The notes beneath the pieces are model-generated. The model did no database searches and had not been told where the DNA came from. It worked only from the letters and a program-made list of their open reading frames with translations. From Candidatus Thorarchaeota archaeon (GTDB taxonomy: Archaea; Asgardarchaeota; Thorarchaeia; Thorarchaeales; Thorarchaeaceae): 64,000 nucleotides of DNA. A program made the position numbers and the translations under genes. Positions 24,454 to 52,687 of the stretch are shown piece by piece. The DNA lies in NCBI GenBank assembly GCA_016839605.1, contig JAEOTX010000044.1, positions 42,171 through 106,170 of the forward strand, given 5' to 3'. How positions within the stretch are numbered: position 1 is the first letter of the stretch; each line of letters starts with the position of its first letter.

Positions 24454-24558
24454 GAACTCTGAAAACACACCAAAGTAGTTAAGAGGCTCACAACGGTTGC
24501 CTCTTCAACATCCACTAACAGGGAGGCCTCAAAACTGCCGGATACTCGTCTTGGACAG

Positions 24559-25455
24559 ATGTTGCAGAGCGGCCAGTTTGTAGTAACTGCTGAGATAAGC
24601 GCACCTCGAGGGTCGGACTACCTTTCGTTGCTTGAGAAGACGAGTATGCTCAAGGACTTTTGTGATGCAATCAATATACCGGACAATCCCCGCAGAATAC
24701 CAAGAATGAGCAGCATCGCCAGTGCACGTTTTGTTCTCGATGCTGGATCCGAACCGGTCTTACATATTGCAATGAGAGACCGCAATAGAGTTGCATTGAT
24801 GAGTGACCTATATGGCGCACATGCTTTAGGAATCCGCAACGTTCTATTCGTTACTGGGGACCTTCCAGGTCTTGGGTCAGACACCCAAGCCGAGATAGTT
24901 TCTGATATTGATTCAGTTCAGGCCTTGCAATTGGCTACTCGAATGATGGCTGGCAATGATCACGCTGGCGAAGAGCTAGAAGGAGTGCCCAATCTCTATC
25001 TGGGTGCGACCTTTGACCCATTTATTGAACCAATCAACGAACAGATTCGAAGAACAAGGTTGAAACATGAATCGGGTGCCCAGTTCTTCCAGACCCAAGC
25101 TGTTTACGATGTAGACCGCTTCGCAGAGTTTGTAGAATCTATTGAGGACCTGAATACGTATGTTCTGGCTGGTGTGGTCCCTCTGCAGGGACTCGAAATG
25201 GCCGAGTTTATGACTGAACATGTATCAGGCATCAACATACCTGATGCAATACTCCAGCGGCTAGAGAATTCTGCTGAGGGACTTGATGATGAGGAACAGG
25301 CAGCCCAGCAAGAAGGTCTGTTAATCGCGACGGAAACTATCAATTCACTGAGAATGATTGATGGTGTGGATGGTGTTCATATAATGGCAGTAGGCTGGGA
25401 ATCCTGCGTTCCAGAACTTGTCAAGTCTGCAGGTCTCTACCCCCGACCCAGTTGA
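24559..25455 (+). CDS. metF: Methylenetetrahydrofolate reductase (MetF family)
   Basis: FVVTAE, DAINIPDN, MRDRNR, VTGD, GAQFFQTQ, GVHIMA. The true start may be CTG at 24535. Confidence 0.88.
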   Translation: MLQSGQFVVTAEISAPRGSDYLSLLEKTSMLKDFCDAINIPDNPRRIPRMSSIASARFVLDAGSEPVLHIAMRDRNRVALMSDLYGAHALGIRNVLFVTGDLPGLGSDTQAEIVSDIDSVQALQLATRMMAGNDHAGEELEGVPNLYLGATFDPFIEPINEQIRRTRLKHESGAQFFQTQAVYDVDRFAEFVESIEDLNTYVLAGVVPLQGLEMAEFMTEHVSGINIPDAILQRLENSAEGLDDEEQAAQQEGLLIATETINSLRMIDGVDGVHIMAVGWESCVPELVKSAGLYPRPS

Positions 25456-25467
25456 GGTAGAACAAAG

Positions 25468-26385
25468 ATGTTTGTCTTCAAGAAAGAACAGAAGTCGTTT
25501 GACATCAGAGGTATCACAATCGGAGGCTATCCCGGAGAGAACCCAACTGTCCTTATAGGGGGCCTCTTCTTCAAGGGACAATCCATTGTTGAGAATACAA
25601 AGGAGGGTCTATTTGACAAGAAAGCAGCAAAAGACTGGCTTGACACAGGGATTAGCATGGCTGAGAGAACCGGCCACCCACTCATTGTAGAAGCATATGG
25701 CAGATCTGCTGTTGCTATGGAGCGGCATCTATCATGGCTTGTTGATAATTATGATGGGCCTTTCATGTACGAATCATCCAACGTAAGTGCTAGGAAGAGC
25801 GCCACTGAGTTCTGCAACGAGGCTGGTCTCACTGAGAGGGCCATTTACAATTCGGTCAATATATCGATGGATGAAGCTGAACGGGCATTCTTGAAAGAGA
25901 GTTCAATAAGCATGGCCGTATTGTTGGGATGGTCTCCAAAAGCAAGCTCCCTAAAGGACAGGATGGAAGTAATTGAAAACACAGTTGTCGAGGCGAAGAC
26001 ATTTGGAATAGAGAAATTCCTAGTCGACCCTGGTACTATGCCCGTAGGTGCAGGGTATGGTCTAGAACTAAGAACGACCATGGCAGTAAAATCAGAGTTG
26101 GGTCTGCCTACCTGTCTTGCACCTCATAATGCACCATCCGCATGGAAGTTCATCAGGGAAGAGGATTTAGACCAAGAGGAAACAGCCAGCTCAGCAGTTA
26201 TCGCGTCAATAGTTGCCGCTCAGTTGTTCGCAACCGATTGCATAATGTATGGTTCAATGAGAAGATCGCGAGAAGTCTTCACTGCAGTAGCTCTTACACA
26301 GAACGCAATTGCCGCTTCTGTTGCAGAGGCAAATCAGGTGCTCGGAGTGGAGAAACATCTTTTCGAGCCTATAGCAAGTGAGTAG
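25468..26385 (+). CDS. MtrH-family pterin methyltransferase, divergent copy (MtgA-like features)
   Basis: IGGYPGENPTVLIG, IYNS, GIEKFLVDPG, APHNAPSAW, MYG. Confidence 0.85.
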   Translation: MFVFKKEQKSFDIRGITIGGYPGENPTVLIGGLFFKGQSIVENTKEGLFDKKAAKDWLDTGISMAERTGHPLIVEAYGRSAVAMERHLSWLVDNYDGPFMYESSNVSARKSATEFCNEAGLTERAIYNSVNISMDEAERAFLKESSISMAVLLGWSPKASSLKDRMEVIENTVVEAKTFGIEKFLVDPGTMPVGAGYGLELRTTMAVKSELGLPTCLAPHNAPSAWKFIREEDLDQEETASSAVIASIVAAQLFATDCIMYGSMRRSREVFTAVALTQNAIAASVAEANQVLGVEKHLFEPIASE

Positions 26386-26396
26386 GAGGTCAGGAG

Positions 26397-27080
26397 ATGT
26401 CGGGAAATGCATGGCCTCATGTGCCTGGGGACTTCGAAGTGGGAGACCCAAGTGGATCTGTTGCAATCTGTACCTTAGGTAAGAAGTTTCCAGTTCCTGG
26501 CAGCTATGCTATCATAGGCACATGCAAGACTGAGAATATTGGGATCGAACGGGTCATCATCAACATAATCTCGAATCCTTCTATCCGCTTTCTAATTCTA
26601 TCAGGACCTGAAGTACCAGGCCACCTGACAGGATCTTCAATGAAGTCGCTTTATGAGAACGGAGTTGACCCTGACACACGCAAGATCATAGATGCCCCTG
26701 GAGCTATTCCCTATATCGAAAATGTGCCACTTGAAGGAGTGGAGCGGTTTAGAAATCAGATTGAGTTTGTAGATATGATGAATATTTCCCGTGCAGAAGA
26801 GATTGCAGCAATGGCTGCAGAGTTGCATGCTAGAAACCCAGGCTCATTTTCTGGCGATCCTATGTTTGTAGATTTCAGAAGAGCTTCAAGTTCGACTCAG
26901 AGAATGGGAATCGGAGGTTCGATAACACTTCTCCCTGAATTTGGAGTATCACTGAGTCCCTTCTCCTTTTTAGTTGGTCCTCAGGAAACAAGCGCTGTAC
27001 TCACTGCACATCCAACATCCATTGGCATAGAAGTGCAATCTAGCGAATCAGGGACGATTCTCATTGGAAAGGAGATATAG
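26397..27080 (+). CDS. mtrA: MtrA/MtxA-like corrinoid protein without membrane anchor, novel C-terminal extension
   Basis: WPHVPGDF, CKTENIGIERVIINIISNPSIRFLILSG, VPGHLTG (Co-ligating His), GAIPYIEN. No hydrophobic C-terminal helix. Confidence 0.88.
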   Translation: MSGNAWPHVPGDFEVGDPSGSVAICTLGKKFPVPGSYAIIGTCKTENIGIERVIINIISNPSIRFLILSGPEVPGHLTGSSMKSLYENGVDPDTRKIIDAPGAIPYIENVPLEGVERFRNQIEFVDMMNISRAEEIAAMAAELHARNPGSFSGDPMFVDFRRASSSTQRMGIGGSITLLPEFGVSLSPFSFLVGPQETSAVLTAHPTSIGIEVQSSESGTILIGKEI

Positions 27081-27083
27081 ACA

Positions 27084-28019
27084 TTGTTTGTGTTTCAAAA
27101 AGAGCAATACATCTACGATATTGGTGGTGTAAAGATAGGTGGCAATCCAGGTGAGACTCCCACTGTTCTAGCTGGGACAATATTCTACGGAGGACATAAG
27201 ATAATTCGGGATGCATCCAAGGGAATAGTGGATGAGTCTGCTGCTGAGGAGCTTATCAATAAACAGGAAACAATGTCCGAAACAACTGGCAATCCCGCGA
27301 TGGTTCAGATATTCTCCGAAACTGCAAATGCAATGAAGAGGTACATAGATTTCGTATGCTCACATACAGAATCTCCATTCATCATCGATTCTACTGATCC
27401 TATGGTGCGGGTAGCAGGCTTGCATCATGCCGAAGAGATTGGACTCATTGACCGAGCAGTATACAACTCAATCAATATATCCGTAACTGAAGAAGAGCTG
27501 GATTCACTACGCGAACTCCAGCATGAGTGTGCCATTGTCCTTGCTTTCAACCCTCAAGATCCATCGACGGCAGGACGTAGAGCAGTGCTTGACGAGGGCG
27601 CAGCATCGCTAAAGCAAGGACTTCTGTCAATCGCAGAGGATGTAGGAGTGACAAAGCCACTAATTGACACAGCCACGACAGCTATGGGCGCAGGAGCTGG
27701 CGCTGCTGTTTCATTTACTTTTGTATCCAAGACCCTTTATGGACACCCAACAGGGTCCGGAATTCATAACGCTGCATCATCATGGACCTGGCTCAAGAAG
27801 TATAGAAAGGAGAACCGGGATGCCTACCAGATTTGTGATATCGCCTCGAATCTAGTCGTCCAGTCTTTAGGCGCTGACTTTATCCTCTATGGGCCAATTG
27901 CTAACGCCAACAGAGTCTTTCCAGCAGTTGCAATGGCTGACATCTTCTCAGCCGAGTCTGCAAAGATGGAAATGGGTTTAGAACCTCCTGAAAATCATCC
28001 TTTTAGGAAACTCCTCTAA
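27084..28019 (+). CDS. mtrH: MtrH-family methyl-H4MPT methyltransferase (canonical-like copy)
   Basis: IGGNPGETPTVLAGTIFYGGH, FIIDST, YNSIN, LAFN, GSGIHNA, GADFILYGPI, HPFRKLL. Confidence 0.9.
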   Translation: MFVFQKEQYIYDIGGVKIGGNPGETPTVLAGTIFYGGHKIIRDASKGIVDESAAEELINKQETMSETTGNPAMVQIFSETANAMKRYIDFVCSHTESPFIIDSTDPMVRVAGLHHAEEIGLIDRAVYNSINISVTEEELDSLRELQHECAIVLAFNPQDPSTAGRRAVLDEGAASLKQGLLSIAEDVGVTKPLIDTATTAMGAGAGAAVSFTFVSKTLYGHPTGSGIHNAASSWTWLKKYRKENRDAYQICDIASNLVVQSLGADFILYGPIANANRVFPAVAMADIFSAESAKMEMGLEPPENHPFRKLL

Positions 28020-28033
28020 GCGGAGGAAAAAAG

Positions 28034-29440
28034 ATGTCAAGAAAGCCGATTGTGGTTCGTCCCCGTAGCATTGGGCTTTCTTCACTGCGCATGGGGCGGT
28101 TCTATACTGTTGCATCGGTTGAACTAGGCAACACGACCACGAAATGCATAATCGTAACAACGAATCTGGAGACCGCAGAGATTTTCGAGATTGAAAAGGA
28201 GATTCGGATGACCAGAGGTGTTCGTCCACCAGTGAAGGGCGAGGAGGTCTTTGGCCGTACCCTCACAGGTGTAGATCTGACCCGAGAATCAGTTACTGAG
28301 TTGGTGTCAGACATTCTCAGAACCGCATTGAATCGTGCACGCCTTGACATTGAGAATGACCTTCATTTCGTTGTACGTTCCACGGGGGTGACCGCTGGAT
28401 TTGCCGATCCGGAGGAGGTTGGAGCGATTGTAAAAGCACTTGCAGAAGGCTGTCTTCATGCAGGTGTAGCACCTAGAAAAATGGCTGCCGCTATATCGCC
28501 AGAGAATCTTCCTCCTAGTCTGAGGGACTTCACCTGGCTTCACAAAGTATATTTCGATGGTGCAGTTGCTAGTTCGCTTCCTCCATCAAATGCAGAGATA
28601 GTTGCTAACGAGATGGAGGGTGAGTTAGTAACAGCTGGATTGAAAGGAGCGGCAAAGAGTACAGATGTCGACTTCAGAAATCCAGTCATGACACTTGATT
28701 TTGGAACTACCCTCGCAGGAAGAATAACAGATAACGGGCATCCGTATGCAAAGACCATCGGCTCATTTGCAGGTCTGGCAGGAGCGATTCCTGATGCGTT
28801 GGTCAGGGGAACGGGAAATGTGGAAGAACAGACTGGTTGTATCCTTGATATCAAAAACTCCGAGCGCCCTCGGAAAAATCAGATAGACGATTCTTGGGTA
28901 GATGAAATTCTTGCACATATACGAGTTGTACGAGTACCAACCGGAATTAGCAGATTTGGGACAGTTCCTGTCAACGTGAAAGCTGCAGAGGAATCTGACG
29001 TAATTCTGATGGGAGTAGATGCAGGAGAAAATGGATCTGGCCTATTAGACCTGGAACTAATCGGAAGGAAGATTGCTGAAGAATCCAGCATTGATACACT
29101 GTTGGCTCTCATCGATGTTGTGCAATTTCATGTTGTGCAACGTCTGGTCAACTTAGCGATTTCTGAGGGACTAATTCTTGATGACACTTCTTTCGGACTC
29201 ACAGGAAGAGCAATCACGACTGGAAATAAGCCCAGATTAATCAATTCACAGCTCTCGCTAGAAGATGGCAAAAGGTGGACTGAGTCGCATCAATTGCTCT
29301 TTGTGGAAGATGGTCTAGCAATGGGTGCGGCAGTTGCCGCTCGGTGTATGAATTCAATGGGAACGATTCATAATCCAATGGGCGGCCGAAAGGGGGACAA
29401 GTGTATAATGGGTGCTCGAATGAAGCGTCAGCGGTCATAG
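28034..29440 (+). CDS. Methanogenesis marker 14 protein (DUF2114, ASKHA-type ATPase fold)
   Basis: VASVELGNTTTKC, FVVRSTGVTAGF, NEMEGELVTAG, DFGTTLAGR, DGLAMGAAVAARCMNS. Confidence 0.82.
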   Translation: MSRKPIVVRPRSIGLSSLRMGRFYTVASVELGNTTTKCIIVTTNLETAEIFEIEKEIRMTRGVRPPVKGEEVFGRTLTGVDLTRESVTELVSDILRTALNRARLDIENDLHFVVRSTGVTAGFADPEEVGAIVKALAEGCLHAGVAPRKMAAAISPENLPPSLRDFTWLHKVYFDGAVASSLPPSNAEIVANEMEGELVTAGLKGAAKSTDVDFRNPVMTLDFGTTLAGRITDNGHPYAKTIGSFAGLAGAIPDALVRGTGNVEEQTGCILDIKNSERPRKNQIDDSWVDEILAHIRVVRVPTGISRFGTVPVNVKAAEESDVILMGVDAGENGSGLLDLELIGRKIAEESSIDTLLALIDVVQFHVVQRLVNLAISEGLILDDTSFGLTGRAITTGNKPRLINSQLSLEDGKRWTESHQLLFVEDGLAMGAAVAARCMNSMGTIHNPMGGRKGDKCIMGARMKRQRS

Positions 29441-29516
29441 GGATTCAATGCTTCAAATCTGCTCATTGAGAGGTTTTATCTTAGTATGCCGCCTCGCCCG
29501 ATTTGAGGAATCCTTT

Positions 29517-30329
29517 ATGGAAATCATCCCCATTCAGACACGAGTCATCTCTGAAGATGATGATATACTAGAAGTTCTTGTCACTTCATTGCAGGATGTC
29601 GGTCTTGATTTGAAAGACAATGATATTCTCGGTATCGCAGAAACTCCATTGGGAACAACAGAAGGCCGCGTAATCAACCTTGCAGACGTTGAGCTCAGTG
29701 AGGAGGCGATTGAGCTTGCAGATGAGTATGACCTCATTCCTGAAGTGGCTGAACTCGTATTAAGGGAAGCAGATGAGATTCTGGGAGGGATTCCACATAT
29801 TCTTCTGACCATCAAGAACAACACACTCATGGCCAATGCTGGTGTAGACAAATCCAACGTTCCTCCTGACCATGCATCTCTCTTACCTGTTGATTCAAGG
29901 AGCAGTGCAGAACGAATCAGGCTGGAAGCAAGGAACCGGTATGGAAGAGATATCGGGGTCTTGGTGATTGACAGTAGAACCCAACCACTGCGTTTGGGGA
30001 ATATCGGCATGGCGCTAGGTGTGGCTGGATTCCGACCAGTTGCGGATGACAGAGGAAGACTTGATTTATTCGGCAACGAGATGCGGATAACTAGGAGGGC
30101 AATTGCAGACAATCTTGCGTCGGCGTGTACAGCAGTGATGGGTGAGTCAGATGAATCAATACCTGGAGTATTAATTCGCTCTGCACCAGTGGAGTTTATT
30201 GACGAATCATTTGACTCCTCTGCAATGTGGATTAGTCCGCAGGAATGCATGTATATGGCCATATTCGACCAATGGCGAGTTGGCAGCTCAGCAGCGAAAA
30301 ACGATGCGCGGATAGCATTCGAAGAATGA
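29517..30329 (+). CDS. cofE: Coenzyme F420-0:L-glutamate ligase (CofE family)
   Basis: EGRVINL, ANAGVDKSN, IDSRTQPLRLG, DDRGRLDLFG, ADNLASA, MGES. Confidence 0.85.
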   Translation: MEIIPIQTRVISEDDDILEVLVTSLQDVGLDLKDNDILGIAETPLGTTEGRVINLADVELSEEAIELADEYDLIPEVAELVLREADEILGGIPHILLTIKNNTLMANAGVDKSNVPPDHASLLPVDSRSSAERIRLEARNRYGRDIGVLVIDSRTQPLRLGNIGMALGVAGFRPVADDRGRLDLFGNEMRITRRAIADNLASACTAVMGESDESIPGVLIRSAPVEFIDESFDSSAMWISPQECMYMAIFDQWRVGSSAAKNDARIAFEE

Positions 30330-43935: not shown

Positions 43936-44733
43936 ATGAAGATAGCTGTAGCAGGTAAGGGAGGGGTCGGAAAGACCACAGTTGCTGGTACAATCGCTCG
44001 ACTCTTGGGACAAGATGGTTTGAGCATTCTTGCTGTAGATGCAGATCCAAGCTATACCCTATGGTCTGCGTTAGGCATTCCAGCTGAACAGGCTGAGAAA
44101 ATTGTCCCTTTGACAGAGAATGAGGACTTATTGAAAGAGCGAATGGAGATTTCAGGTGCAGGCTCTTACAAAGAAGTCTTCAAACTGAATCCGCGTGTTG
44201 ATGACCTCAGTGGTCTGTTTGCAGTCGAGGGGCCGGATAACGTAAGCCTACTTGTCGCAGGCACCGTAGAACTTGGAGGTTCAGGATGCATGTGTCCATC
44301 TGCTACTCTCCTCAAGGCGCTTATGCGGTTCCTGGTTCTAGGTTCTGATGAAGCGTTTGTGATGGACATGGATGCTGGAGTGGAGAACCTTGGTCGAGGG
44401 ACAACCACCGGAATGGACGCGCTCATCGTAGTTGCAGAACCAGGGCGTAGGTCTCTAGCAATCCTGTCCAAGATTAAGCAGCTAGCACTTGACATTAACG
44501 TTGGTCGCATACTAGCTGTAGGCAACAAGGTCGCTGATCCTGAGGATGAAGAAATGATTCGGAAAAGAGTGGAATCCGAAGGAATACCCCTTCTCGGAAT
44601 GGTCCCACTTGATGAATCGATCAAAGCCGCTGACCGAAAAGGCATGGCTCCGATAGACCTTGATGCTGACTCACCAGGGATGGTGGCAATTCGAGAGATA
44701 AAACAACGTCTTGTTGATGAGTTTCGAGAATGA
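43936..44733 (+). CDS. cooC: CooC/AcsF nickel-insertion ATPase
   Basis: GKGGVGKTT, VDADP, GCMCP, DMDAGVE. Confidence 0.9.
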   Translation: MKIAVAGKGGVGKTTVAGTIARLLGQDGLSILAVDADPSYTLWSALGIPAEQAEKIVPLTENEDLLKERMEISGAGSYKEVFKLNPRVDDLSGLFAVEGPDNVSLLVAGTVELGGSGCMCPSATLLKALMRFLVLGSDEAFVMDMDAGVENLGRGTTTGMDALIVVAEPGRRSLAILSKIKQLALDINVGRILAVGNKVADPEDEEMIRKRVESEGIPLLGMVPLDESIKAADRKGMAPIDLDADSPGMVAIREIKQRLVDEFRE

Positions 44734-44912
44734 ACACGCTTTTCTTAAAGTTACACTGTGAACGTTCAAATCGGTGTCATATAATTTACCGAAAGAATAC
44801 GGATTCATTTGGTTAACGATTGATTCGTATACTTGTTCTCGATATCGTTGATGATTCATAACCTTATTATGCTGCTTTTTGTCACGACCAGCATATTAGC
44901 CACAGGGTTTGT

Positions 44913-47261
44913 ATGCATATGAAAAAGAAAGCACACTTCAAAGCTGATGAAGCGAGAACCGATTTAGGTGTCTTCAAAGGTCTTGAGGTTCGAATCGGGC
45001 AGATCGTGGATGACGAATGGGATGAACCAATGGGTCCAACCCCAATGCCGAGTCCAACCGGTCTCCGATCTTGGGACCACAAGCTCTTGACGAAATATAC
45101 GCCATCCTACATGCCTTATTGTCAGGTCTGTTGTCTATGTACATTTGGCAAATGTGACCTCTCCGGAGACAAGCGGGGTGCCTGTGGGATTGATATGAAG
45201 GGGCAACAGGCAAGAATTGTGCTCGCAGCAGCCAATATAGGCAATGCAGCACACTTGGCTCATGCAAGACACTTGGTTGATCACTTGATTGATGAGTTCG
45301 GTCCTCGAACTGATCTTATTCAAGGACCTGGCACCGAGATACACGCACCTGTTTCTCGTTTGGTGACGGGAACGAGACCAAGAACTCTTGAGGATGCCAG
45401 CATAATTCTTGACTATTGTGAGAGTCAACTAGCTCACACACTCTCAGCCACACACACGGGCCAAGAGGGGAGCTGGTTAGACTTCGAGAGTAAGGTTCTC
45501 CATGTTGGGATGATAGATCAAGTAAGCATGGAGATTGCAGACCTAGTTCAGATTTCGACACTTGGCTTTCCGAAAGCCGATCCAGAAGCGCCGCTTGTTG
45601 ACTCTGGCATAGGCATGATGGATCTAAACAAGGCAATCATCCTGACTATTGGTCACAACATTGTACCAGCAGCCTCGATAACCGACTATATTACTGAGAA
45701 GAAACTTGGAGCCAAAGTTGAGGTAGGTGGCATGTGCTGCACTGCATGGGATATCACACGCCGTGATCCAAGTGCCAAGGTGATTGGGCCAATCTCTTGG
45801 CAGCTTAGATATATTCGAAGCGGCAAGGCTGATGTTGTAGTAGTGGACGAGCAATGTGTCCGGACTGATGTGGTTTCTGAGGCTCAGAAAGTAAAGGCTC
45901 CAGTTATTTCAACGAGTGACAAAGCAGTAATGGGACTGCCGGACAGATCTGATGATGCAATTGACTCGATAGTTGATGAACTTGTATCAGGAAAGATACC
46001 TGGTGCATATATCTCCGATCACCATAAGGTTGGAGCGGTTGCAACCAAAGTAGCCCTTGCTGTCATGCCAAAAAGAAGGAAGATGAAATTCTTCCCGACA
46101 AAGAAACAGATTCAGAAGATGGCTCAAGAATGTAAGAAATGTAGTGAATGCATTCGGTCGTGTCCAAATGACCAGCCAGTTATGGAGGCTGTCTTAGCGG
46201 CTCAGACGGGGAATTTCGAGCCACTACGTGATGTCTATCGGAACTGTATTGGATGTGCACGGTGCGAATCTGCATGTCCCAACGATTATGACTTACATAG
46301 TTGGATGGTTGTTGCAGCTGAAGCTGACTGCGAAGCTGAAACCTACAAGGTTCGAACAGGAAGGGGTGCAATTCAGGATACCGAAATCCGCAGCGTTGGC
46401 CAGCCCATCGTCTTCGGAGAGATTCCTGGAGTAATTGCACATGTTGGTTGTGCTAATTATCCTGGTGGAGGCGCTGATATCCACGAAATGGCCGAAGAAT
46501 TCGCCAAACGAAGGTATATCATAGTGACTTCAGGATGTGCAGCAATATCAGCTGGTCATGTAAAAGATGAAAATGGCCAATCCATATATGAGAGACGTGG
46601 TGGCGAATTCGATGCAGGCTGCGTTCTCAATGTTGGTTCATGTGTATCCAATCCTCACATAGCTGGCGCTGCGATTAAAATCGCTGCGATTTTCGCCAAG
46701 AGAAATCTACGAGCCAACTACGCTGAAATTGCTGACTACATTCACAATCGGGTTGGTGCTGTAGGTATCTCTTGGGGCGCGATGTCGCAGAAGGCTGCAT
46801 CAATTGCAGCTGGTTTCTGGCGACTCGGAGTTCCAGTGATTGTTGGCCCTCATGGTTCCAAGTACCGAAGAATGTTGCTTGGTAAAGCTGAGGAAGAACG
46901 AGCTTGGACTGTCTATGATGCACGTACTGGAGATCGTGTAGTGACTGCGCCTGGTCCCGAACACCTATTCTATGCCGCTGAAACTGTCGCAGAAGCTAAT
47001 GTGATGACAGCAAAGCTCTGTCTTAGGCCCAATGATACAAGTAGGGGGCGCTCCATCAAACTGAGCCACTACATTGACATCCATGAGAATTCATACGGCT
47101 TTTTCCCGGAGGATGTTTGGAACTACATCCGTCGTGAATCGGATATTCCAATCACATTGAAGGACAAGATTTTGGCTCAAATGAAGGAGAACAAATGGAA
47201 GGAAAGAACAATCCCAGATCCGACGCTTCTCAAGGAGCTAGTCATGGGAGGTGGCAAATAA
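44913..47261 (+). CDS. cdhA: CO dehydrogenase/acetyl-CoA synthase alpha subunit
   Basis: CQVCCLCTFGKC, IGHN, GMCCT, DEQC, two ferredoxin motifs, GCAN, SGC, GSCVSN. Confidence 0.96.
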   Translation: MHMKKKAHFKADEARTDLGVFKGLEVRIGQIVDDEWDEPMGPTPMPSPTGLRSWDHKLLTKYTPSYMPYCQVCCLCTFGKCDLSGDKRGACGIDMKGQQARIVLAAANIGNAAHLAHARHLVDHLIDEFGPRTDLIQGPGTEIHAPVSRLVTGTRPRTLEDASIILDYCESQLAHTLSATHTGQEGSWLDFESKVLHVGMIDQVSMEIADLVQISTLGFPKADPEAPLVDSGIGMMDLNKAIILTIGHNIVPAASITDYITEKKLGAKVEVGGMCCTAWDITRRDPSAKVIGPISWQLRYIRSGKADVVVVDEQCVRTDVVSEAQKVKAPVISTSDKAVMGLPDRSDDAIDSIVDELVSGKIPGAYISDHHKVGAVATKVALAVMPKRRKMKFFPTKKQIQKMAQECKKCSECIRSCPNDQPVMEAVLAAQTGNFEPLRDVYRNCIGCARCESACPNDYDLHSWMVVAAEADCEAETYKVRTGRGAIQDTEIRSVGQPIVFGEIPGVIAHVGCANYPGGGADIHEMAEEFAKRRYIIVTSGCAAISAGHVKDENGQSIYERRGGEFDAGCVLNVGSCVSNPHIAGAAIKIAAIFAKRNLRANYAEIADYIHNRVGAVGISWGAMSQKAASIAAGFWRLGVPVIVGPHGSKYRRMLLGKAEEERAWTVYDARTGDRVVTAPGPEHLFYAAETVAEANVMTAKLCLRPNDTSRGRSIKLSHYIDIHENSYGFFPEDVWNYIRRESDIPITLKDKILAQMKENKWKERTIPDPTLLKELVMGGGK

Positions 47262-47809
47262 TGGTGATGAGACCAGTACCCTGGCAGACAGGAGAGATTT
47301 GCGGCCCTGACAGTGCAAAATCACTCAACAAGGCCACCCAGCTAAAAAGAGTCTTCACGAAATCAAAGAAACCCCTATTGATTGTGGGATCTGATGCAGT
47401 TGGCATGCCGCATGGGAAGGGTGACATGATTGACTATGCAATAGCCCTTTCAGAGGCTGGTAAGATACCTGTTGTTGCTACTGGAGGCGCAATCAAGGCC
47501 TTTATTGAGAAGGGTTTTGAAGGCGCAAAATCAAAAGGCGCAATGGAATTGGCGAACTACCTTCAGGATGAATCGTGGCCAGGTCCCCATGGAAAGGGAC
47601 CTCACGATTTGATTCTGGTTTATGGTATCCCATACTACATGCAGTGGACGCTGCTATCTGCAGTTATGAACTTTGGGACTCATCTGGCAAAGGTTACCCT
47701 GGGGCGTTATTATCAACCACATGCAGATTGGTCATTCCCAAACATGAAGGAGAAGCAATGGCACAAAACTCTGGATGAAATTCTGGAGTTTGTAGGAGGA
47801 GGTAAGTAA
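47261..47809 (+). CDS. cdhB: CODH/ACS epsilon subunit
   Basis: PWQ, KKPLLIVG, D.SW.G..G.G.HDL, YYQPHADWSFPN; operon position. Confidence 0.92.
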   Translation: MVMRPVPWQTGEICGPDSAKSLNKATQLKRVFTKSKKPLLIVGSDAVGMPHGKGDMIDYAIALSEAGKIPVVATGGAIKAFIEKGFEGAKSKGAMELANYLQDESWPGPHGKGPHDLILVYGIPYYMQWTLLSAVMNFGTHLAKVTLGRYYQPHADWSFPNMKEKQWHKTLDEILEFVGGGK

Positions 47810-47810
47810 C

Positions 47811-49214
47811 ATGTCATTTGAAGACATTCCAGTAGATGTAGGCGTAGTATACGAAGGTGAGCGAGTCCGAGGAAAGGACATGTATGTAGAGCTCGGCGGT
47901 CCAAAAATGGAACAGAAATTCGAACTTGCTCTGGCACGAGAAATGGGCGACATCGAAGATGAGAAAGTCACTGTCATCGGACCCGACTTGAAGGACATGG
48001 AGGAAGGGAGCTATCATCCATTTGGCATCCTAATAGAGGTGGCTGGAAAGGAGATAGAACCTGACCTTGAAGGCGTCATTGAAAGGCGCATTCACGAATA
48101 TGTGAACTTCGTTGAAGGAATGATGCACCTGAACCAGAGATACGACATCTGGATTCGGCTCAACAAGAGGTCTTTCGAAAAGGGATTCAATACCTTTGAG
48201 TTTCTGGGTAAGGTCCTAGTTCGGCTCTTCAAGAGTGAGATGAATATCATTGAGAAAATACAGGTTACGTTCTTCACAGACCCTGAGAAGATAGCCGAAC
48301 GATATGATGAGGCCATAAACAGATACAACGAGAGAGATGCTCGTGCAAGAGGACTCAGTGATCCAGATGTAGACACATTCTACGGATGCTCATTGTGTCA
48401 GTCTTTCGCTCCAACTCACATCTGTGTGATAACACCGCAGAGATATGCAAATTGCGGAGCAATAAGTTGGTTCGATGGTCGTGCAGCCGCAAGAGTTGAC
48501 CCTAAAGGGCCCCTCTATGCAATCTCGAAAGGTGACACGATAGATGAGTTTTCTGGTGAGTACACAGGTGTGAATCAGATCAGCGCGGAGAAATCGCTTG
48601 GTAAGGTCACCTCAGTAGCTCTCTACAGTGCCTTTGACAAGCCACACACAAGCTGTGGTTGCTTTGAGGCAATCGCGTTTGTGATTCCTGAGGTAGACGG
48701 TCTTGGAGTTGTCCACAGAGACTTCAAGGGTGAAACAGTGAACGGACTGCCCTTTTCAAGCATGGCTGACTCCACGGCTGGAGGCCGACAGGTGCCTGGT
48801 TTCCATGGGCTCTCAATAGAGTACATGCGTTCACCTCGTTTCCTACAGGTTGACGGTGGCTATGATAGAGTCGTATGGATGCCTGACTCAGTGAAACAAC
48901 GAATCTATGAGTTCATGCCTGAAGATATCAGAGACAAGATCCCGACCGAGAACGATGTCATGACCATTGGCGATCTCAAGACCTTCCTCAAGGAGAAGAA
49001 CCATCCAGTTGTGGAACGTTGGGTGGAGATTGAGGAGGACGAGACAGCTCTGGCAGAGGTTTCTGATACTGGCGATTATGTTTCTGTACCTGGTGAAATG
49101 ACTGCCATGGTTGGTGGTATTGGTGGCGGCCTTGAAATCATCTTCAAGAATGCCAAAATATACGCTGAGAAGGTCATTATCCGCAAGACAGGGAAGGGTG
49201 GAAAGAAGAAATGA
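47811..49214 (+). CDS. cdhC: CODH/ACS beta subunit (acetyl-CoA synthase)
   Basis: YEGERVR, FYGCSLCQSFAPTHIC, PHTSCGCFE. Confidence 0.96.
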   Translation: MSFEDIPVDVGVVYEGERVRGKDMYVELGGPKMEQKFELALAREMGDIEDEKVTVIGPDLKDMEEGSYHPFGILIEVAGKEIEPDLEGVIERRIHEYVNFVEGMMHLNQRYDIWIRLNKRSFEKGFNTFEFLGKVLVRLFKSEMNIIEKIQVTFFTDPEKIAERYDEAINRYNERDARARGLSDPDVDTFYGCSLCQSFAPTHICVITPQRYANCGAISWFDGRAAARVDPKGPLYAISKGDTIDEFSGEYTGVNQISAEKSLGKVTSVALYSAFDKPHTSCGCFEAIAFVIPEVDGLGVVHRDFKGETVNGLPFSSMADSTAGGRQVPGFHGLSIEYMRSPRFLQVDGGYDRVVWMPDSVKQRIYEFMPEDIRDKIPTENDVMTIGDLKTFLKEKNHPVVERWVEIEEDETALAEVSDTGDYVSVPGEMTAMVGGIGGGLEIIFKNAKIYAEKVIIRKTGKGGKKK

Positions 49215-50404
49215 CGTCCCATGAGGAAGGAAGAGGGCAGTCGCTAGACGACATCTTCGGTGAATTCGCCGAGTTGGAGCTGGAGGATGTCACGATACAG
49301 GTTGACGAACTCAAGCTTGCTCTCCGTCCCATGGTCCAACGGATAGCTCAGGCTGCAGCAAAGGCTGCAATTGAGAGGCCAAAGTCCCTCATACCCACGC
49401 AGCTCAAGGCTCCCCTTGGTGAGTATCCCGGTGTCATTCGGGAGATTACTATTGGGGCCACGAAGAAAGAGGGAGGCTCAAGGAGCAATACCGTGACCAT
49501 TGGTGGTCATACTGCACCAGCATGGGACCTGTTTCAATCACCACCGAAGAATCCACCAATCATAGCGGCTGATGTCTTTGATATGCCTATTCCACTGGCA
49601 AAGGCGGTGAAGACACATTACAGAGAAGTTCTTGAGGATCCCGCAGAGTGGGCGAAGCTCTGTGTGGACAAGTTCGGAGCTGATTTGATAACAATTCATC
49701 TCATCAGTACCGATAGACAACTCGGAGACACATCACCTGCAAAAGCCGCAAAGACTGTCGAGGAGGTTTTACAAGCAGTAAAGGTTCCTGTGCTTATTGG
49801 TTCTGCAGGAGACCCTGAGAAAGACGGTCCTGTCCTAGCAAAGGCTGCAGAGGTGTGTGAGGGTGAACGGACCCTGCTATGTTCGGCTACAATCGATGTC
49901 TATGAACCCGTTGCAGTAGCTGCAAAGGAGCATGACCAGATTGTCTTGTCTTGGACCTCACTCGACATCAATGATCAGAAGGAACTGAACCGAAGGCTTA
50001 TCGAATGGGTAACGCCCGATCAGATAGTCATTGATCCTACAACAGCTGCTCTTGGATATGGTCTTGAATATGCCTTCACCATGATGCAGAGGATGCGTCT
50101 GGCTGGGCTCTTAGGCGACAGCGAGCTACAATACCCAATCAGTTCTGGTACTACAAATGCCTGGGCTGCTAGAGAGGCATGGCTAAAGGCACCTGAACTT
50201 GGTCCGAGAGAACTTCGTGGACCAATCTGGGAGAGTGTGACTGCGTTGTCACTTCTGCTGGCAGGAAACGACCTCTTCATGATGATGCATCCTGCAGCGA
50301 TGAAGACAGTCCATGATCTTATTGAGTGGCTTCGAGAGAGGCGGCCGATACCAGTCGAGGAATACGCAGACTGGACATCAATCGAAATACCGGAGGGGAT
50401 CTAA
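49211..50404 (+). CDS. cdhD: CODH/ACS delta subunit (CFeSP small subunit)
   Basis: DPAEWAK, DPTTAALGYGLEY, NAWAAREAW, MMMHP. Confidence 0.94.
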   Translation: MTSHEEGRGQSLDDIFGEFAELELEDVTIQVDELKLALRPMVQRIAQAAAKAAIERPKSLIPTQLKAPLGEYPGVIREITIGATKKEGGSRSNTVTIGGHTAPAWDLFQSPPKNPPIIAADVFDMPIPLAKAVKTHYREVLEDPAEWAKLCVDKFGADLITIHLISTDRQLGDTSPAKAAKTVEEVLQAVKVPVLIGSAGDPEKDGPVLAKAAEVCEGERTLLCSATIDVYEPVAVAAKEHDQIVLSWTSLDINDQKELNRRLIEWVTPDQIVIDPTTAALGYGLEYAFTMMQRMRLAGLLGDSELQYPISSGTTNAWAAREAWLKAPELGPRELRGPIWESVTALSLLLAGNDLFMMMHPAAMKTVHDLIEWLRERRPIPVEEYADWTSIEIPEGI

Positions 50405-51820
50405 ATGGTCAAACTTCCAGGTCCATTGGACATCTACCCTCTTTTGCCTGGTACAAACTGCGAGGAGTGCGGAGAGGCCAACTGCATGGCTTTTGCAACG
50501 AAGCTCGCCGAATACACGGTGAAGCTTGCTGCTTGTGCTCCTCTCTACAAAGAGGCTCAGTATGTCAAGAAGCTGACCAAGCTAGAGGATCTAATTCGTC
50601 CTCCAGTCAGAGAAGTTGTGATTGGCACAGGTGAAAAAGCTGCTTCGATAGGTGGAAAGCTAGTCCTGTATAGACATGATCTTAGATACTCGAATCCGAT
50701 TGCATTCTTTGTTGATGTAGCTGACACACTTGAGGGCGATGCCCTCTCCCAGAGAGTCAAGGCTATTGAAGACTGGACGTACATGTACATTGGTCAGAAT
50801 CTACGGTTAGATGGAGTAGCACTACGAGGTGTATCACAAGATCCGCAGACTTTTGCTAAGGCTGCAAAGAAATTGTCTGAGCTCACTGACTGGCCAATTA
50901 TCCTATGCTCGCTAAATTCTGAGATGCTGGCCGCTGCAGCTAACGCAATCGCTGATAAGCGACCTTTGCTCTATGCAGCGACACTGGATACATGGTCCGA
51001 TGTTGGAGATATTGCAGTCAAGCACAATCTCCCCTTGGTGGCTTATGCACCAAGCGGGTTAGACGACATTGCAACGCTTGTCAATACTCTGAGAGCCATG
51101 GGAGTAGAGGAAATTGTACTCGATCCAGGCACAGCTTCAAGAGCTGGTCTTGGTACCACTGTTGACAGCTTTACGCAGCTCAGGAGAGCTGCTACACTAG
51201 AGGAGAACGAACTAGTTGGGTATCCACTACTTGCGACTCCAATCTCAGTATGGGCGGACCATAAGGAGGGTGCTGCACCAGAGTTAACTAAATGGGACGA
51301 GGTCCTCACTGCGGCAGCAATGATAGTCCGTTACTCTGATGCAATCGTTGTCCATAGTTTGGACATGTGGACCAATCTGCCACTAACCTTTCTACGAAGC
51401 AATCTCTACACCGATCCAGTCAAGCCCGTAGCCGTTGAGGCCGGACTACAGGAATTCGGTAAGGTTGATGCAGACTCTCCAGTGATGTATACAACAAACT
51501 TTGCGCTTACCTACTTTACTGTAGAGAGCGACATCAAACAGGCTGGCGTCAATGCCTATCTCGTGGTGGTTGATACGGAGGGAATGAGTGTCCAATCCGC
51601 AGTTGCAGGTAGAAGACTGACTGCAGAGAAAGTGGCGGAAAGCCTAGAGGAATACAAGGTGTCTGACAAGGTCAAACACAAGGTTCTCATCAGTCCAGGA
51701 ATGGCCGCGAGAATTAGTGGTGAAACCGAAGAGGTCTCTGGTTGGACTGTCAAAGTAGGTCCCCAGGACTCCAGCGGAATACCCAAGTATCTCCAATCAG
51801 GTAAATGGAAAGAAGAGTAA
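50405..51820 (+). CDS. cdhE: CODH/ACS gamma subunit (CFeSP large subunit)
   Basis: LPGTNCEECGEANCMAFA, YTDP.KPV.VE, TTNFALTYFTVESD. Confidence 0.95.
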   Translation: MVKLPGPLDIYPLLPGTNCEECGEANCMAFATKLAEYTVKLAACAPLYKEAQYVKKLTKLEDLIRPPVREVVIGTGEKAASIGGKLVLYRHDLRYSNPIAFFVDVADTLEGDALSQRVKAIEDWTYMYIGQNLRLDGVALRGVSQDPQTFAKAAKKLSELTDWPIILCSLNSEMLAAAANAIADKRPLLYAATLDTWSDVGDIAVKHNLPLVAYAPSGLDDIATLVNTLRAMGVEEIVLDPGTASRAGLGTTVDSFTQLRRAATLEENELVGYPLLATPISVWADHKEGAAPELTKWDEVLTAAAMIVRYSDAIVVHSLDMWTNLPLTFLRSNLYTDPVKPVAVEAGLQEFGKVDADSPVMYTTNFALTYFTVESDIKQAGVNAYLVVVDTEGMSVQSAVAGRRLTAEKVAESLEEYKVSDKVKHKVLISPGMAARISGETEEVSGWTVKVGPQDSSGIPKYLQSGKWKEE

Positions 51821-51883
51821 GAGGCCATACCTAAACGGTCTTAGGGGCTAAATGCCCCCTCTTTCCTATTGAGAGTAAGAAGA

Positions 51884-52687
51884 ATGAAAGAACGTCTAGT
51901 GATATCTGTGTCTGGCAAGGGTGGAGTCGGTAAGACCACTACTTCAGGACTCCTCTCCAGAATAATTGCAGAGCAGACCCAAAGGTCACTTCTCCTGGTT
52001 GATGCAGATCCAGTCATGAATCTTCCTCGCGCCTTGGGAGTTGATGTTCCAGCATCGGTGGGAGAGATAGCTTCCCAAATGAGGAAGAAAATTGATGATG
52101 GAACACTTCCAGCATCTGCCGCGAAACAAGATATTCTGGAAGGAGAAATCTTTGAAGCACTCATTGAGGGGGACCGTTTTGATTTCTTAGCTATGGGGCG
52201 AACAGAAGGTGAAGGTTGCTACTGTTATGTCAACAGAATATTAACACAGATTCTTGACACACTCACGATGAATTATGAGATTACTCTTCTTGATATGACC
52301 GCAGGTCTTGAGCACTTCAGTCGGCGCACTGACAGGAATGTAGACATCCTCATTATTGTGATTGATTCCTCAAGAGCCGCTTTTGAAGCAGCACTGCGAA
52401 TAAGAGACCTCGCCAAAGAGGTTCATATTGACTTCAAGAAGCTAGTAGTGATTGGAAATCGTATTCCCGCCAATCTTGTTGATGCGGTCTCACAAGGGCT
52501 TGAAGAGAATGACCTCTTTCTAGCCGGAATGATTCCTAATGATGATGAGGTCGCGAAGCTCAATTACATGGGGAAACCGGTTTTCGACCTGCCAGATGAT
52601 TCACCTGCATTTCAGGCCGTTGAGGGAATTGCAGAGAAGCTGGGTCTTCTCAGTGAAGTGACATTGTTGAAATTGTTGGGCCAGTAA
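51884..52687 (+). CDS. Second CooC/AcsF nickel-insertion ATPase
   Basis: GKGGVGKTT, VDADP, GEGCYC, AGLEHFSRR. Confidence 0.9.
   Translation: MKERLVISVSGKGGVGKTTTSGLLSRIIAEQTQRSLLLVDADPVMNLPRALGVDVPASVGEIASQMRKKIDDGTLPASAAKQDILEGEIFEALIEGDRFDFLAMGRTEGEGCYCYVNRILTQILDTLTMNYEITLLDMTAGLEHFSRRTDRNVDILIIVIDSSRAAFEAALRIRDLAKEVHIDFKKLVVIGNRIPANLVDAVSQGLEENDLFLAGMIPNDDEVAKLNYMGKPVFDLPDDSPAFQAVEGIAEKLGLLSEVTLLKLLGQ

Follow-up and report, generated by a model that had tools for sequence, protein, structure and literature searches.

The Mtr complex of methanogens (MtrABCDEFGH, the CH3-H4MPT:CoM methyltransferase; 8Q3V, 9QTP/9QTS) shares with an operon of Thorarchaeia the His-ligand corrinoid domain of MtrA, a canonical MtrH, the MtrB docking hairpin and the gene order mtrA...mtrH-mmp14 (loci L145 and L204). 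The Thorarchaeia module nevertheless lacks MtrCDE, MtrF, MtrG, membrane anchors, the CoM site and Na+ pumping; it carries the hairpin as part of MtrA, encodes a second MtrH (MtrH') and has folate-type genes on its flanks. The MtxXAH system of Methanosarcinales (PMC4632066, PMC12978539) likewise combines a canonical-clade MtrH with a soluble, anchor-less MtrA paralogue, whose tail weakly resembles the MtrB N-terminus (HHalign 61%), but it has one MtrH only, and MtxX instead of MetF and MtrH'. Comparison with loci L200–L203 excluded that the module is itself MtxXAH, as it has no mtxX with a single mtxA and mtxH.

MtgA (Desulfitobacterium), CmuB (Methylorubrum) and MtoA (Methermicoccus) share the TIM-barrel family and the pterin-reading residues with MtrH'. 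These methyl-corrinoid:pterin methyltransferases fall outside the canonical MtrH clade and are paired with Rossmann-type corrinoid proteins, whereas MtrH' falls inside it; metF also adjoins an H4F-using member of the family in metF-cmuB on pCMU01. The folate cluster of Methanosarcinaceae (PMC9012536; L265), which in Methanosarcina reads purN-glyA-folD-folP-metV-metF-cofE-like, has counterparts of MetV, MetF and the CofE-like protein in the same order, but Thorarchaeia insert mtrH'-mtrA-mtrH-mmp14 between metF and cofE and carry the other folate genes elsewhere. The B12 maintenance ATPases RACo/RamA (RACE), DdrA/GdrA and EutA share with Mmp14 an ASKHA (actin/Hsp70/sugar-kinase) fold and association with cobamide proteins.

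MtrAH and marker 14 (m26/DUF2114) of Thorarchaeia have been published as 'canonical MtrAH' in a study that left open what MtrAH does outside methanogens and what marker 14 is for (Adam et al. 2022, PMC9635834). The text and supplement of that study do not mention MetF, and we found nothing in it about a mechanism, the fused MtrB hairpin, the CofE-like gene or an additional MtrH. The claim of a preliminary description that such a module had not been reported thus fails for MtrAH and marker 14 and holds for MetF, for the additional MtrH and for the way in which the module is built. We found no literature description of a methyl-H4folate:H4methanopterin methyltransferase activity.

A conserved operon between folate genes

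The window, which is the whole stretch of 64,000 nucleotides analyzed here, contains the following features:

24535..25455, + strand: MetF, methylene-pterin reductase (PF02219; start CTG 24535 or ATG 24559)
25468..26385, + strand: MtrH', divergent but within the canonical MtrH clade by profiles, residues and trees
26397..27080, + strand: MtrA, soluble corrinoid protein with cobalt ligand His77, a disordered short linker and a beta-strand tail replacing the membrane anchor
26916..26981, + strand: MtrA residues 174-195, a fused hairpin resembling the MtrB N-terminus (HHalign 97%, E 2.4e-11; invariant P180-E181)
27084..28019, + strand: MtrH, canonical type (TIGR01114, 410 bits, cut-off 271)
28034..29440, + strand: Mmp14, methanogenesis marker 14 (DUF2114, m26; TIGR03285, 605 bits, cut-off 274)
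29448..30329, + strand: CofE-family gamma-glutamyl ligase of the folate-cluster type (PF01996; start likely near 29517)
43936..52687, + strand: cooC-like gene, cdhABCDE and cooC-like gene, about 15 kb downstream (context only, possible methyl sink)

A GGAGG located 8 nt before CTG 24535 makes this codon a plausible MetF start, and the ATG-start frame spans 24559-25455. Coordinates and profile matches bear out the five co-oriented genes first described, with spacers of 12, 11, 3 and 14 nt, and the motifs quoted at that time are present in the translations. Two neighbors had been overlooked: the CofE-like gene, which is probably a sixth operon member, and a metV that lies upstream of metF in about half of the relatives and that our search did not find in the source genome. 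A synteny survey across Thorarchaeia shows that 19/20 of the family genomes surveyed keep the order metF-mtrH'-mtrA-mtrH-mmp14-cofE, as do nearly all Thorarchaeia contigs of sufficient length, so the arrangement is not due to chance. One genome (G029, 91% complete) holds mtrH'-mtrA-mtrH-mmp14 with MetF not found, and MtrH' is split in another (G030).

The lack of mtrCDE and mcr originally noticed in the window extends genome-wide, as tblastn returned no match to McrABG or MtrBCDEFG in the source genome (80% complete); MtrE was found in none of the 61 genomes searched (0/37 among Thorarchaeia family genomes). Judged by gene content, neither the CoM-methylating membrane half (MtrCDE) nor the stalk remains, and MtrH' occupies the former place of mtrEDCB. 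The locus is confirmed as a soluble, membrane-free Mtr remnant with a second, re-tooled MtrH, set between two folate genes. The word remnant was also used in PMC9635834 and, along with the loss of metV and the split MtrH', could evoke a relic of methanogenesis that is decaying and has no present function, but the reading frames are intact, the gene order is fixed and the active-site residues are invariant across the family, which makes this reading very improbable.

MtrA has exchanged its anchor for a docking hairpin

The corrinoid domain of MtrA matches 8Q3V_A with an E value of 1e-49, and its cobalt ligand His77 (equivalent to His84) is kept in 17/17 sequences. That MtrA has no anchor, as initially proposed, is borne out by the hydropathy of its tail (top 19-residue value of at most 1.4 in 16 Thorarchaeia sequences versus at least 2.0 in canonical MtrA) and by the predicted model, which has a beta-strand tail and no membrane helix. 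Pfam MtrB is the sole family match to the MtrA tails (E 0.004-0.06 in four of eight), in which the P180-E181 pair occurs in 52/52 sequences, Glu181 being invariant. The MtrB N-terminus binds the MtrH dimer via Arg5-Asp5 and Glu9-Arg211 salt bridges (PMC12774963). The Arg211 equivalent (R202) is present in 121/121 MtrH' sequences but missing from every Thorarchaeia MtrH that we examined, and an acidic residue 5 is retained in MtrH and not in MtrH'. At the level of sequence, the MtrA anchor has been exchanged for the MtrB hairpin, the element that docks on the MtrH dimer.

Two different MtrH proteins

MtrH was recognized from the outset as methanogen-type, in agreement with its TIGR01114 score and its position in the canonical clade of our tree. 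It carries T32/Q75/D102/N128/D195/H228/N229 and a basic tail patch. MtrH', which had been likened to MtgA, instead groups with the canonical MtrH/MtxH clade (support 99/95), and its union with an MtgA-like clade (proxies P0179/P0154) is marginally rejected by the AU test (p=0.037). The GIEKFLVDPG motif that had suggested the likeness is exact in only 5/121 MtrH' orthologues, 100 of which have DPA. MtrH' also scores only 187 bits against the NF047990 cut-off of 550 and lacks the MtgA active-site set Ser32/Asp75/Asp102 with Tyr35/His38. The genome has a third MtrH next to RACo on contig C117, which, unlike MtrH', belongs to this wider radiation outside the canonical clade.

Clade membership does not fix the pterin, since MtoA accepts H4F in vitro, and the possible promiscuity of the MtrH family for H4F and H4MPT (PMC8630106) means that a bridge between the two carriers does not strictly need two paralogues. 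MtrH' retains N128/D187/H220/N221 and carries G32, F35, Q38, Q or E75, E102 and C216, among which Gly32 and Glu102 occur in 121/121 sequences and E102, C216 and H220 are invariant. The Asn/Asp/Asn pterin-reading residues (MtgA Asn129/Asp194/Asn227; PMC7154762, PMC12774963) are kept in 121, 120 and 121 of 121 sequences, respectively. The equivalent of the tail residue Arg236 is basic in 116/121 MtrH', and the basic patch K242/K243, proposed to serve the methanopterin tail, is gone in MtrH' and retained in MtrH.

Asp102 is catalytic in MtgA, where an Ala mutant abolishes activity (PMC7154762), and its position is Glu in every MtrH'; we assume that MtrH' is active despite this substitution. The exchange of the catalytic Asp, together with that of Ser/Thr32 for Gly and the loss of Tyr35/His38 in all MtrH', could also mean that MtrH' is non-catalytic or regulatory, providing a docking site for MtrA in a heterodimer and maybe binding a pterin effector, while catalysis with one pterin or both would be left to MtrH. 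Retention of the MtrB-binding Arg in MtrH' only would fit such a role, as would the probable service of MtrA by one dimer subunit only in canonical Mtr (PMC12774963) and the ability of a single enzyme, MtoA, to take H4F (PMC8630106). We consider it unlikely because the altered residues are fixed (121/121) and not decayed, and because MtrH' keeps the residues (D196 and N230) that degenerate MtrH-family proteins in the tree drop.

The folate link and the distribution of C1 enzymes

The single MetF of the genome is 39-42% identical to MetF of the Methanosarcinaceae folate cluster versus 29-35% to the ANME-1-like/other-Asgard group, in which the ANME-1 identity of G075 and G086 is deduced from the presence of Mtr and a Mer not over cut-off. 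A long branch (support 93) separates Thorarchaeia MetF from this group, excluding membership in the ANME-1/Bathyarchaeia/Asgard assemblage. The CofE-like protein is sister to the Methanosarcinaceae folate-cluster paralogues (clade 100/100, long branches flagged), with 46-48% identity versus 31-38% to their other CofE, and falls below the F420 CofE cut-offs (178 bits versus 180.65 and 191 versus 274; TIGR01916/NF009809). Sequence relationships of both proteins thus support the folate link of the module and the folate side envisaged in the preliminary description.

The genome encodes a folate set (Fhs, FolD, FolP, GcvT) and a methanopterin-side set (Mch, Mtd, Ftr, Fwd, Cdh), in keeping with the proposed coexistence of bacterial-type and archaeal-type C1 enzymes. 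In the family, Fhs is found in 35/36 genomes, DHPS in 34/36, Mch in 33/36 and Mtd in 26/36; Mer is above cut-off in most genomes searched and is not assembled in the source MAG. RFAP synthase was found in 1/36 relatives and not in the search of the source genome (1/37 overall), a near-absence that counts against a folate–methanopterin bridge, since methanopterin would have to be scavenged or made by another route; its de novo synthesis is doubtful.

The rarity of RFAP synthase would also fit one home-made carrier, with all enzymes acting on a single folate-like pterin, or with MetF replacing Mer on methylene-H4MPT; the latter has been proposed for ANME-1, with which Asgard MetFs were grouped (PMC9012536). 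This is quite improbable, given that Thorarchaeia MetF lies outside the group of Mer-less ANME-1-like genomes and other Asgard MetFs and that most Thorarchaeia have a real Mer; with a single carrier, two pterin sites would amount to futile exchange.

A dedicated feed of the cdh operon, also proposed initially, is not upheld, since cdhC occurs in 13/36 family genomes, nearly all with the module, and the module is present in 20/20 genomes versus 5/20 for cdh. In G017 (94% complete) and G025 (93%) the module persists without Mtd and without a Mer above cut-off, which also speaks against a folate–methanopterin bridge. A near-universal module amid patchy Cdh, Mtd, Mer and RFAP synthase could point to a one-way relay, in which CH3-H4F from MetF would pass through a promiscuous MtrH to MtrA and on to a non-pterin acceptor (homocysteine or another thiol) via MtrH' or an unlinked enzyme. 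In that case it would supply methyl groups for anabolism and might be a new methionine synthase: our searches found neither a MetE/Mes-type synthase in 25 family genomes nor a MetH homocysteine domain in the source genome, a soluble mtxA-mtxH-X-mmp14 lies beside core MetE and ThyA in two small Halobacteriota genomes, and the invariant E102, C216 and H220 of MtrH' are possible metal ligands. Methionine auxotrophy is, however, possible in peptide fermenters, the putative ligands C216 and H220 are four residues apart, G045 holds MtrH' plus a core MetE-like gene, and the full Asn/Asp/Asn set would be needless in a thiol-binding barrel, so that we regard a one-way relay as improbable.

Mmp14 has an ASKHA fold and no Fe-S domain

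The Mmp14 model (pLDDT 91.6) adopts an ASKHA fold with two phosphate-loop motifs, and its top VIA structural matches are all ASKHA proteins (Z 17.7-17.1, r.m.s.d. 3.4-4.7, 250-312 aligned). Pfam gives DUF2114 only, with no Fe-S domain, and the CX4CX2C motif occurs in 0 of 56 Mmp14 sequences, whereas the real RACo of the genome carries Fer2. Of the ATP-dependent corrinoid activator first envisaged, the ATPase-type fold is borne out, and reductive activation of the RACE type is not supported for want of an Fe-S electron-transfer domain. DdrA (2D0O) ranks 36th (Z 12.8, r.m.s.d. 4.3, 272 aligned) and the EutA feature score of 0.83 is a lead only; as none of RACo/RamA, DdrA/GdrA and EutA is the top structural match, Mmp14 appears to form a family of its own. 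The complex predicted for Mmp14 and MtrA(1-165) scores 0.52 versus 0.00 for the best control, on a scale whose mark is reached by 58/80 solved and 2/110 mismatched pairs, with only seven solved pairs and both mismatches at or below 0.60. At least 82% of the contacts agree between runs, with a partner pLDDT of at least 87, hinting that Mmp14 may bind MtrA. We infer that Mmp14 could be an ATP-dependent maintenance factor for the MtrA cobamide.

A putative folate–methanopterin methyl bridge

Sequences and predicted models support the soluble relay suggested initially: a methyl relay on a cobamide that stems from Mtr, has MtrA at its center and includes two distinct MtrH proteins. MtrA would be tethered by its hairpin to MtrH', most simply within a heterodimer of MtrH and MtrH', and the corrinoid domain would swing on the short linker from one pterin site to the other. 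MtrH would give methyl groups to, or take them from, a methanopterin-type carrier, and MtrH' would do so with a glutamylated folate, so that CH3-H4F from or for MetF would be exchanged with CH3-H4MPT, reversibly and without ion-pumping coupling. A likely use would be to pass folate C1 units from glycine, serine and histidine breakdown, after reduction by MetF, to the H4MPT side, where the methyl group would be oxidized (Mer/Mtd/Mch/Ftr/Fwd) or, in genomes that have cdh like this one, enter acetyl-CoA. Mmp14 might load, exchange or, with an outside reductant, reactivate the MtrA cobamide. We assign a probability of roughly 0.45 to the sequence-based proposal of a folate–methanopterin methyl bridge through MtrA, MtrH and MtrH'. 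The fuller proposal, that the tethered assembly is a methyl-H4folate:H4methanopterin methyltransferase whose MtrA cobamide is maintained by Mmp14, as it would also be in methanogen Mtr, is held somewhat more tentatively.

The operon offers a small system, soluble throughout, for testing both MtrAH and marker 14 without membrane proteins, and mutations can be aimed precisely at the fused MtrB hairpin and at the docking residues divided between the two MtrH proteins. A function established for Mmp14 would apply to all methanogens that contain Mtr. If the bridge is true, it would account for the linkage of folate and methanopterin enzymes in this Asgard lineage, and an ion-pumping machine would have been rebuilt as a carrier-to-carrier transferase.

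Gene content and conservation of the operon

The five co-oriented genes claimed in the preliminary description (metF–mtrH'–mtrA–mtrH–mmp14) were all found, with intergenic spacers of 12, 11, 3 and 14 nt, and are followed by a gene of the CofE family. The features referred to below are:

25468-26385, + strand, MtrH', the first and diverged MtrH
27084-28019, + strand, the second MtrH
28034-29440, + strand, Mmp14 (methanogenesis marker 14; DUF2114, m26)
29448-30329, same strand as the five genes, CofE-family gene 3' of mmp14, likely start near 29517

Within 24520-24561, the probable start of MetF is a CTG codon (24535) after a GGAGG site, and homologues reach upstream of the first ATG. A promoter and terminator scan, which uses a bacterial model, stayed at chance level.

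The order from metF to cofE is kept in 19 of the 20 family genomes whose loci were cut out. Among 55 contigs of the Thorarchaeia type, nearly every one shows it too, to the extent that its length allows. About half of the Thorarchaeia-type loci have metV upstream of metF, a gene looked for and not found in this genome. One relative (G029) has mtrH'–mtrA–mtrH–mmp14 without MetF, and G045, a single genome from another Asgard family, carries mtrH'–mtrA–mtrH. In G045, a gene for an IscB-like RNA-guided nuclease lies after mtrH, at the position of mmp14 in Thorarchaeia (L065:1-593), and in the relative G030 mtrH' is broken near its 5' end by a frameshift or an assembly error (L040:6185-7104).

This genome, a MAG that is 80% complete, encodes three MtrH proteins and a single copy each of MtrA and MetF. 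In line with the expected genome-wide absence of mcr and mtrCDE, tblastn of this genome with methanogen McrABG and MtrBCDEFG queries gave no match; MtrE was not found in the 61 relatives searched. As previously stated, mmp14 usually sits beside mtr genes in methanogens, often directly after mtrH or within 2-4 kb (L145, L160, L204), and the Thorarchaeia block can therefore be described as mtrA–mtrH–mmp14 with metVF–mtrH' in place of mtrEDCB. In the genomes G070 and G092 (L198, L199), a full mtr operon ends in two near-identical canonical mtrH genes that are separated by ~2 kb.

Canonical MtrAH and m26/DUF2114 have been reported in Thorarchaeia as remnants without an assigned role (Adam et al. 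2022, PMC9635834), and soluble MtxA/MtxH are known from Methanosarcinales (PMC4632066, PMC12978539). Parts of the module are thus already described. In literature of incomplete coverage, neither the MetF link nor the second MtrH turned up in any paper, and the same holds for the MtrB-hairpin fusion and the proposed folate-cluster origin of the flanks described below.

Two distinct MtrH proteins

The second MtrH is of the canonical methanogen type, as proposed (TIGR01114, 410 bits), and carries T32/Q75/D102/N128/D195/H228/N229 together with the basic patch, which has been put forward as the site for the methanopterin tail (PMC12774963). MtrH' had been likened to MtgA partly on the basis of a GIEKFLVDPG motif, which is exact in just 5 of 121 orthologues. 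Relative to the MtgA active site (PMC7154762), MtrH' retains Asn129, Asp194, Asn227 and a basic equivalent of Arg236, but has Gly at Ser/Thr32, Glu at the catalytic Asp102 and Gln at His38 (each 121/121). It also has a new Cys216 (121/121) and is without K242/K243. Judged from these residues, MtrH' appears to have a re-specialised pterin-binding site rather than a decaying one. We regard it as highly improbable that the operon is a functionless relic.

In the trees, MtrH' forms a long branch nested within the canonical MtrH/MtxH clade (FastTree 0.95; IQ-TREE 99/95; 33 rows in the careful tree), apart from CmuB, the third MtrH and the MtgA-like proxies P0179 and P0154. These proxies stand in for true MtgA and score 355 and 319 bits against its model, both under the cut-off. 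Constraining MtrH' with these proxies cost 30 log-likelihood units (p-AU 0.037). Acquisition of MtrH' as a horizontally transferred MtgA is rejected by residues, by three trees and, marginally, by the AU test. The subfamily is narrow, with one full cluster at 566 bits and the next score at 248 (50% representatives); its orthologues bear Thorarchaeota names, and no close relatives beyond Thorarchaeia and G045 were found among the 50% representatives. Because MtoA, of the same family, takes H4F in vitro despite its presumed partner being H4MPT (PMC8630106), the pterin of MtrH' is not readable from sequence.

The third MtrH belongs to the D75 type and is encoded on another contig (C117:31620-34772, L003), next to a RACo-type activator of the ASKHA superfamily that includes a 2Fe-2S domain. 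Upstream is a gene for a divergent Fe-S protein similar to a reductive dehalogenase or an epoxyqueuosine reductase, and the corresponding loci of relatives (L214, L215) add a B12-binding corrinoid protein. This locus is likely an entry route for methyl groups of methylated substrates.

An MtrB-like tail on MtrA, a putative dock for MtrH

The corrinoid domain of MtrA is complete, with His77 kept, and its model shows a disordered linker (163-173) followed by beta-strands and zero membrane helices. Residues 174-195 resemble the MtrB N-terminus (HHalign 97%, E 2.4e-11), and Pfam MtrB is the only family match of the tail. All but one of 52 tails beat the best of 1040 shuffles, the sole exception being the tail of this window. 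A repeat of the hairpin was also looked for, but the second half of the tail has no detectable likeness to MtrB.

In the M. mazei structure, the MtrB N-terminal element sits on the MtrH dimer interface via Arg5–Asp5 and Glu9–Arg211 (PMC12774963). Glu181 of the MtrA tail, equivalent to MtrB Glu9, is unchanged in 52/52 sequences, and the Arg211 equivalent is Arg in 21/28 canonical MtrH and 121/121 MtrH', and Ala, Ser, Gly or Leu in Thorarchaeia MtrH. Conversely, acidic residue 5 is kept in Thorarchaeia MtrH and is Lys in MtrH'. We infer that MtrA is tethered to MtrH', and a MtrH/MtrH' heterodimer would be the simplest explanation for docking residues divided in this way. Alternatively, MtrH' might be a non-catalytic docking subunit, a reading that we find unlikely.

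A resemblance to the N-terminal hairpin of MtrB is also seen in the tails of MtxA proteins (L176, L180, L183, L196, L197, L202, L203; HHalign 61%, E 8e-5). MtrA proteins without an anchor may therefore bring their own MtrH dock in general.

Folate-type flanking genes

Two MetF types have been distinguished, the H4F-type of the Methanosarcinaceae folate cluster and the ANME-1 type, which is common to many Asgard archaea and may use H4MPT (PMC9012536). Thorarchaeia MetF shares 39-42% identity with the H4F-type and 29-35% with the ANME-1 type, which forms a separate long-branched group in a quick tree (support 93); the tree leaves the join with Methanosarcinaceae open, so this is nearness and no proven clade. 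The Methanosarcina folate cluster has the order purN–glyA–folD–folP–metV–metF–cofE-like, and the operon CofE is the sister of its CofE-like protein (100/100, long branches flagged; 43-51% identity versus 30-40% to other CofEs). In Chlamydia, a CofE homologue stands in place of FolC (PMC1971073). The kinship of MetF and CofE with this cluster presents the operon as an Mtr relic embedded in a folate-type metVF–cofE block, and the flanking genes would point to folate.

This genome also holds an fhs–folD–ftcd cluster (L213:7352-11517, contig C116) and mptE–folP divergent beside gcvT–gcvH (L285:3248-6875, contig C101), which tie folate C1 metabolism to glycine and histidine breakdown. Fhs is present in 35/36 relatives and DHPS in 34/36. 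Genomes of other Asgard families (G043, G048, G058, G113; L239-L242) have an ANME-1-like metV–metF beside or near mer; Fhs was not found in G043, G048 and G058, and G048, G058 and G113 carry an extra, very divergent second MetF-like gene.

Methanopterin side and cdh

Ftr, FwdC, Mch and Mtd are present in this genome; Mer is over the cut-off in most genomes of the genus and missing from this assembly. Across the family, where absences are given as 'not found' since the genomes are MAGs, Mch occurs in 33/36 relatives and Mtd in 26/36, and G017 and G025, in which Mer and Mtd were both not found, retain the module. RFAP synthase catalyses the committed step towards the methanopterin side chain; it was found in 1/36 relatives and not in this genome. 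Its rarity is too consistent for MAG gaps alone, and methanopterin would therefore be scavenged or made by another route. The methanopterin side of the bridge is thus weaker than the folate side. A single-carrier model seems quite improbable to us.

The module had been supposed to feed the cdh operon, which starts ~15 kb downstream. We reject a dedicated feed, as cdhC is patchy (13/36 relatives; 5/20 genomes outside the genus) whereas the MtrH pair is in 20/20 of those outside the genus.

Mmp14 as a candidate partner of MtrA

The proposal that Mmp14 is an ATP-dependent corrinoid activator agrees with its fold. The model (pLDDT 91.6, pTM 0.92) matches the ASKHA superfamily only, among the matches listed and at superfamily level only, and the phosphate-loop motifs are invariant, but the RACE Fe-S domain is lacking. 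RACo was not among the best 50 VIA matches listed, and a PDB sequence search gave no match; similarities to DdrA (Z 12.8, r.m.s.d. 4.3 over 272 aligned residues) and to EutA (with a feature score of 0.83) serve as leads only. C140, C438 and C457 are invariant in 56 sequences and fit no Fe-S motif, and may form a metal or redox site.

A predicted complex of Mmp14 with MtrA(1-165) scored 0.52 (best control 0.00), with at least 82% contact agreement between runs and partner pLDDT of at least 87. This is weak support on our benchmark, whose mark was reached by 58/80 solved and 2/110 mismatched pairs, with just 7 solved and both mismatched pairs at 0.60 or below. Together with MtrA/H synteny, the predicted complex makes a role of Mmp14 in cobamide maintenance plausible.

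A candidate methyl relay

In a rival reading, homocysteine or some other acceptor that is not a pterin would take up the methyl group. Consistent with this, no MetE was found in 25 family genomes, the MetH homocysteine domain was not found in this genome, and a soluble mtxA–mtxH–mmp14 block adjoins core MetE in other archaea; we nonetheless hold this route to be improbable. Methionine synthesis by an unlinked MesA-type MetE was discarded, none being found in those 25 genomes. In the small Halobacteriota genomes G093 (L209:3054-9043) and G071 (L210:4217-9296), mtxA–mtxH, an unknown gene, mmp14, core MetE (PF01717) and thyA lie in one run, probably a second soluble MtrA/H and Mmp14 module, for methionine synthesis.

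The operon is real and family-wide, and its methyl-transfer activity is testable and unproven. The methyl bridge first suggested on the strength of an MtgA-like MtrH' is kept as the best reading, on different grounds: with a probability of roughly 0.45, the module would act in Thorarchaeia as a reversible, uncoupled relay between CH3-H4F and CH3-H4MPT via tethered MtrA.
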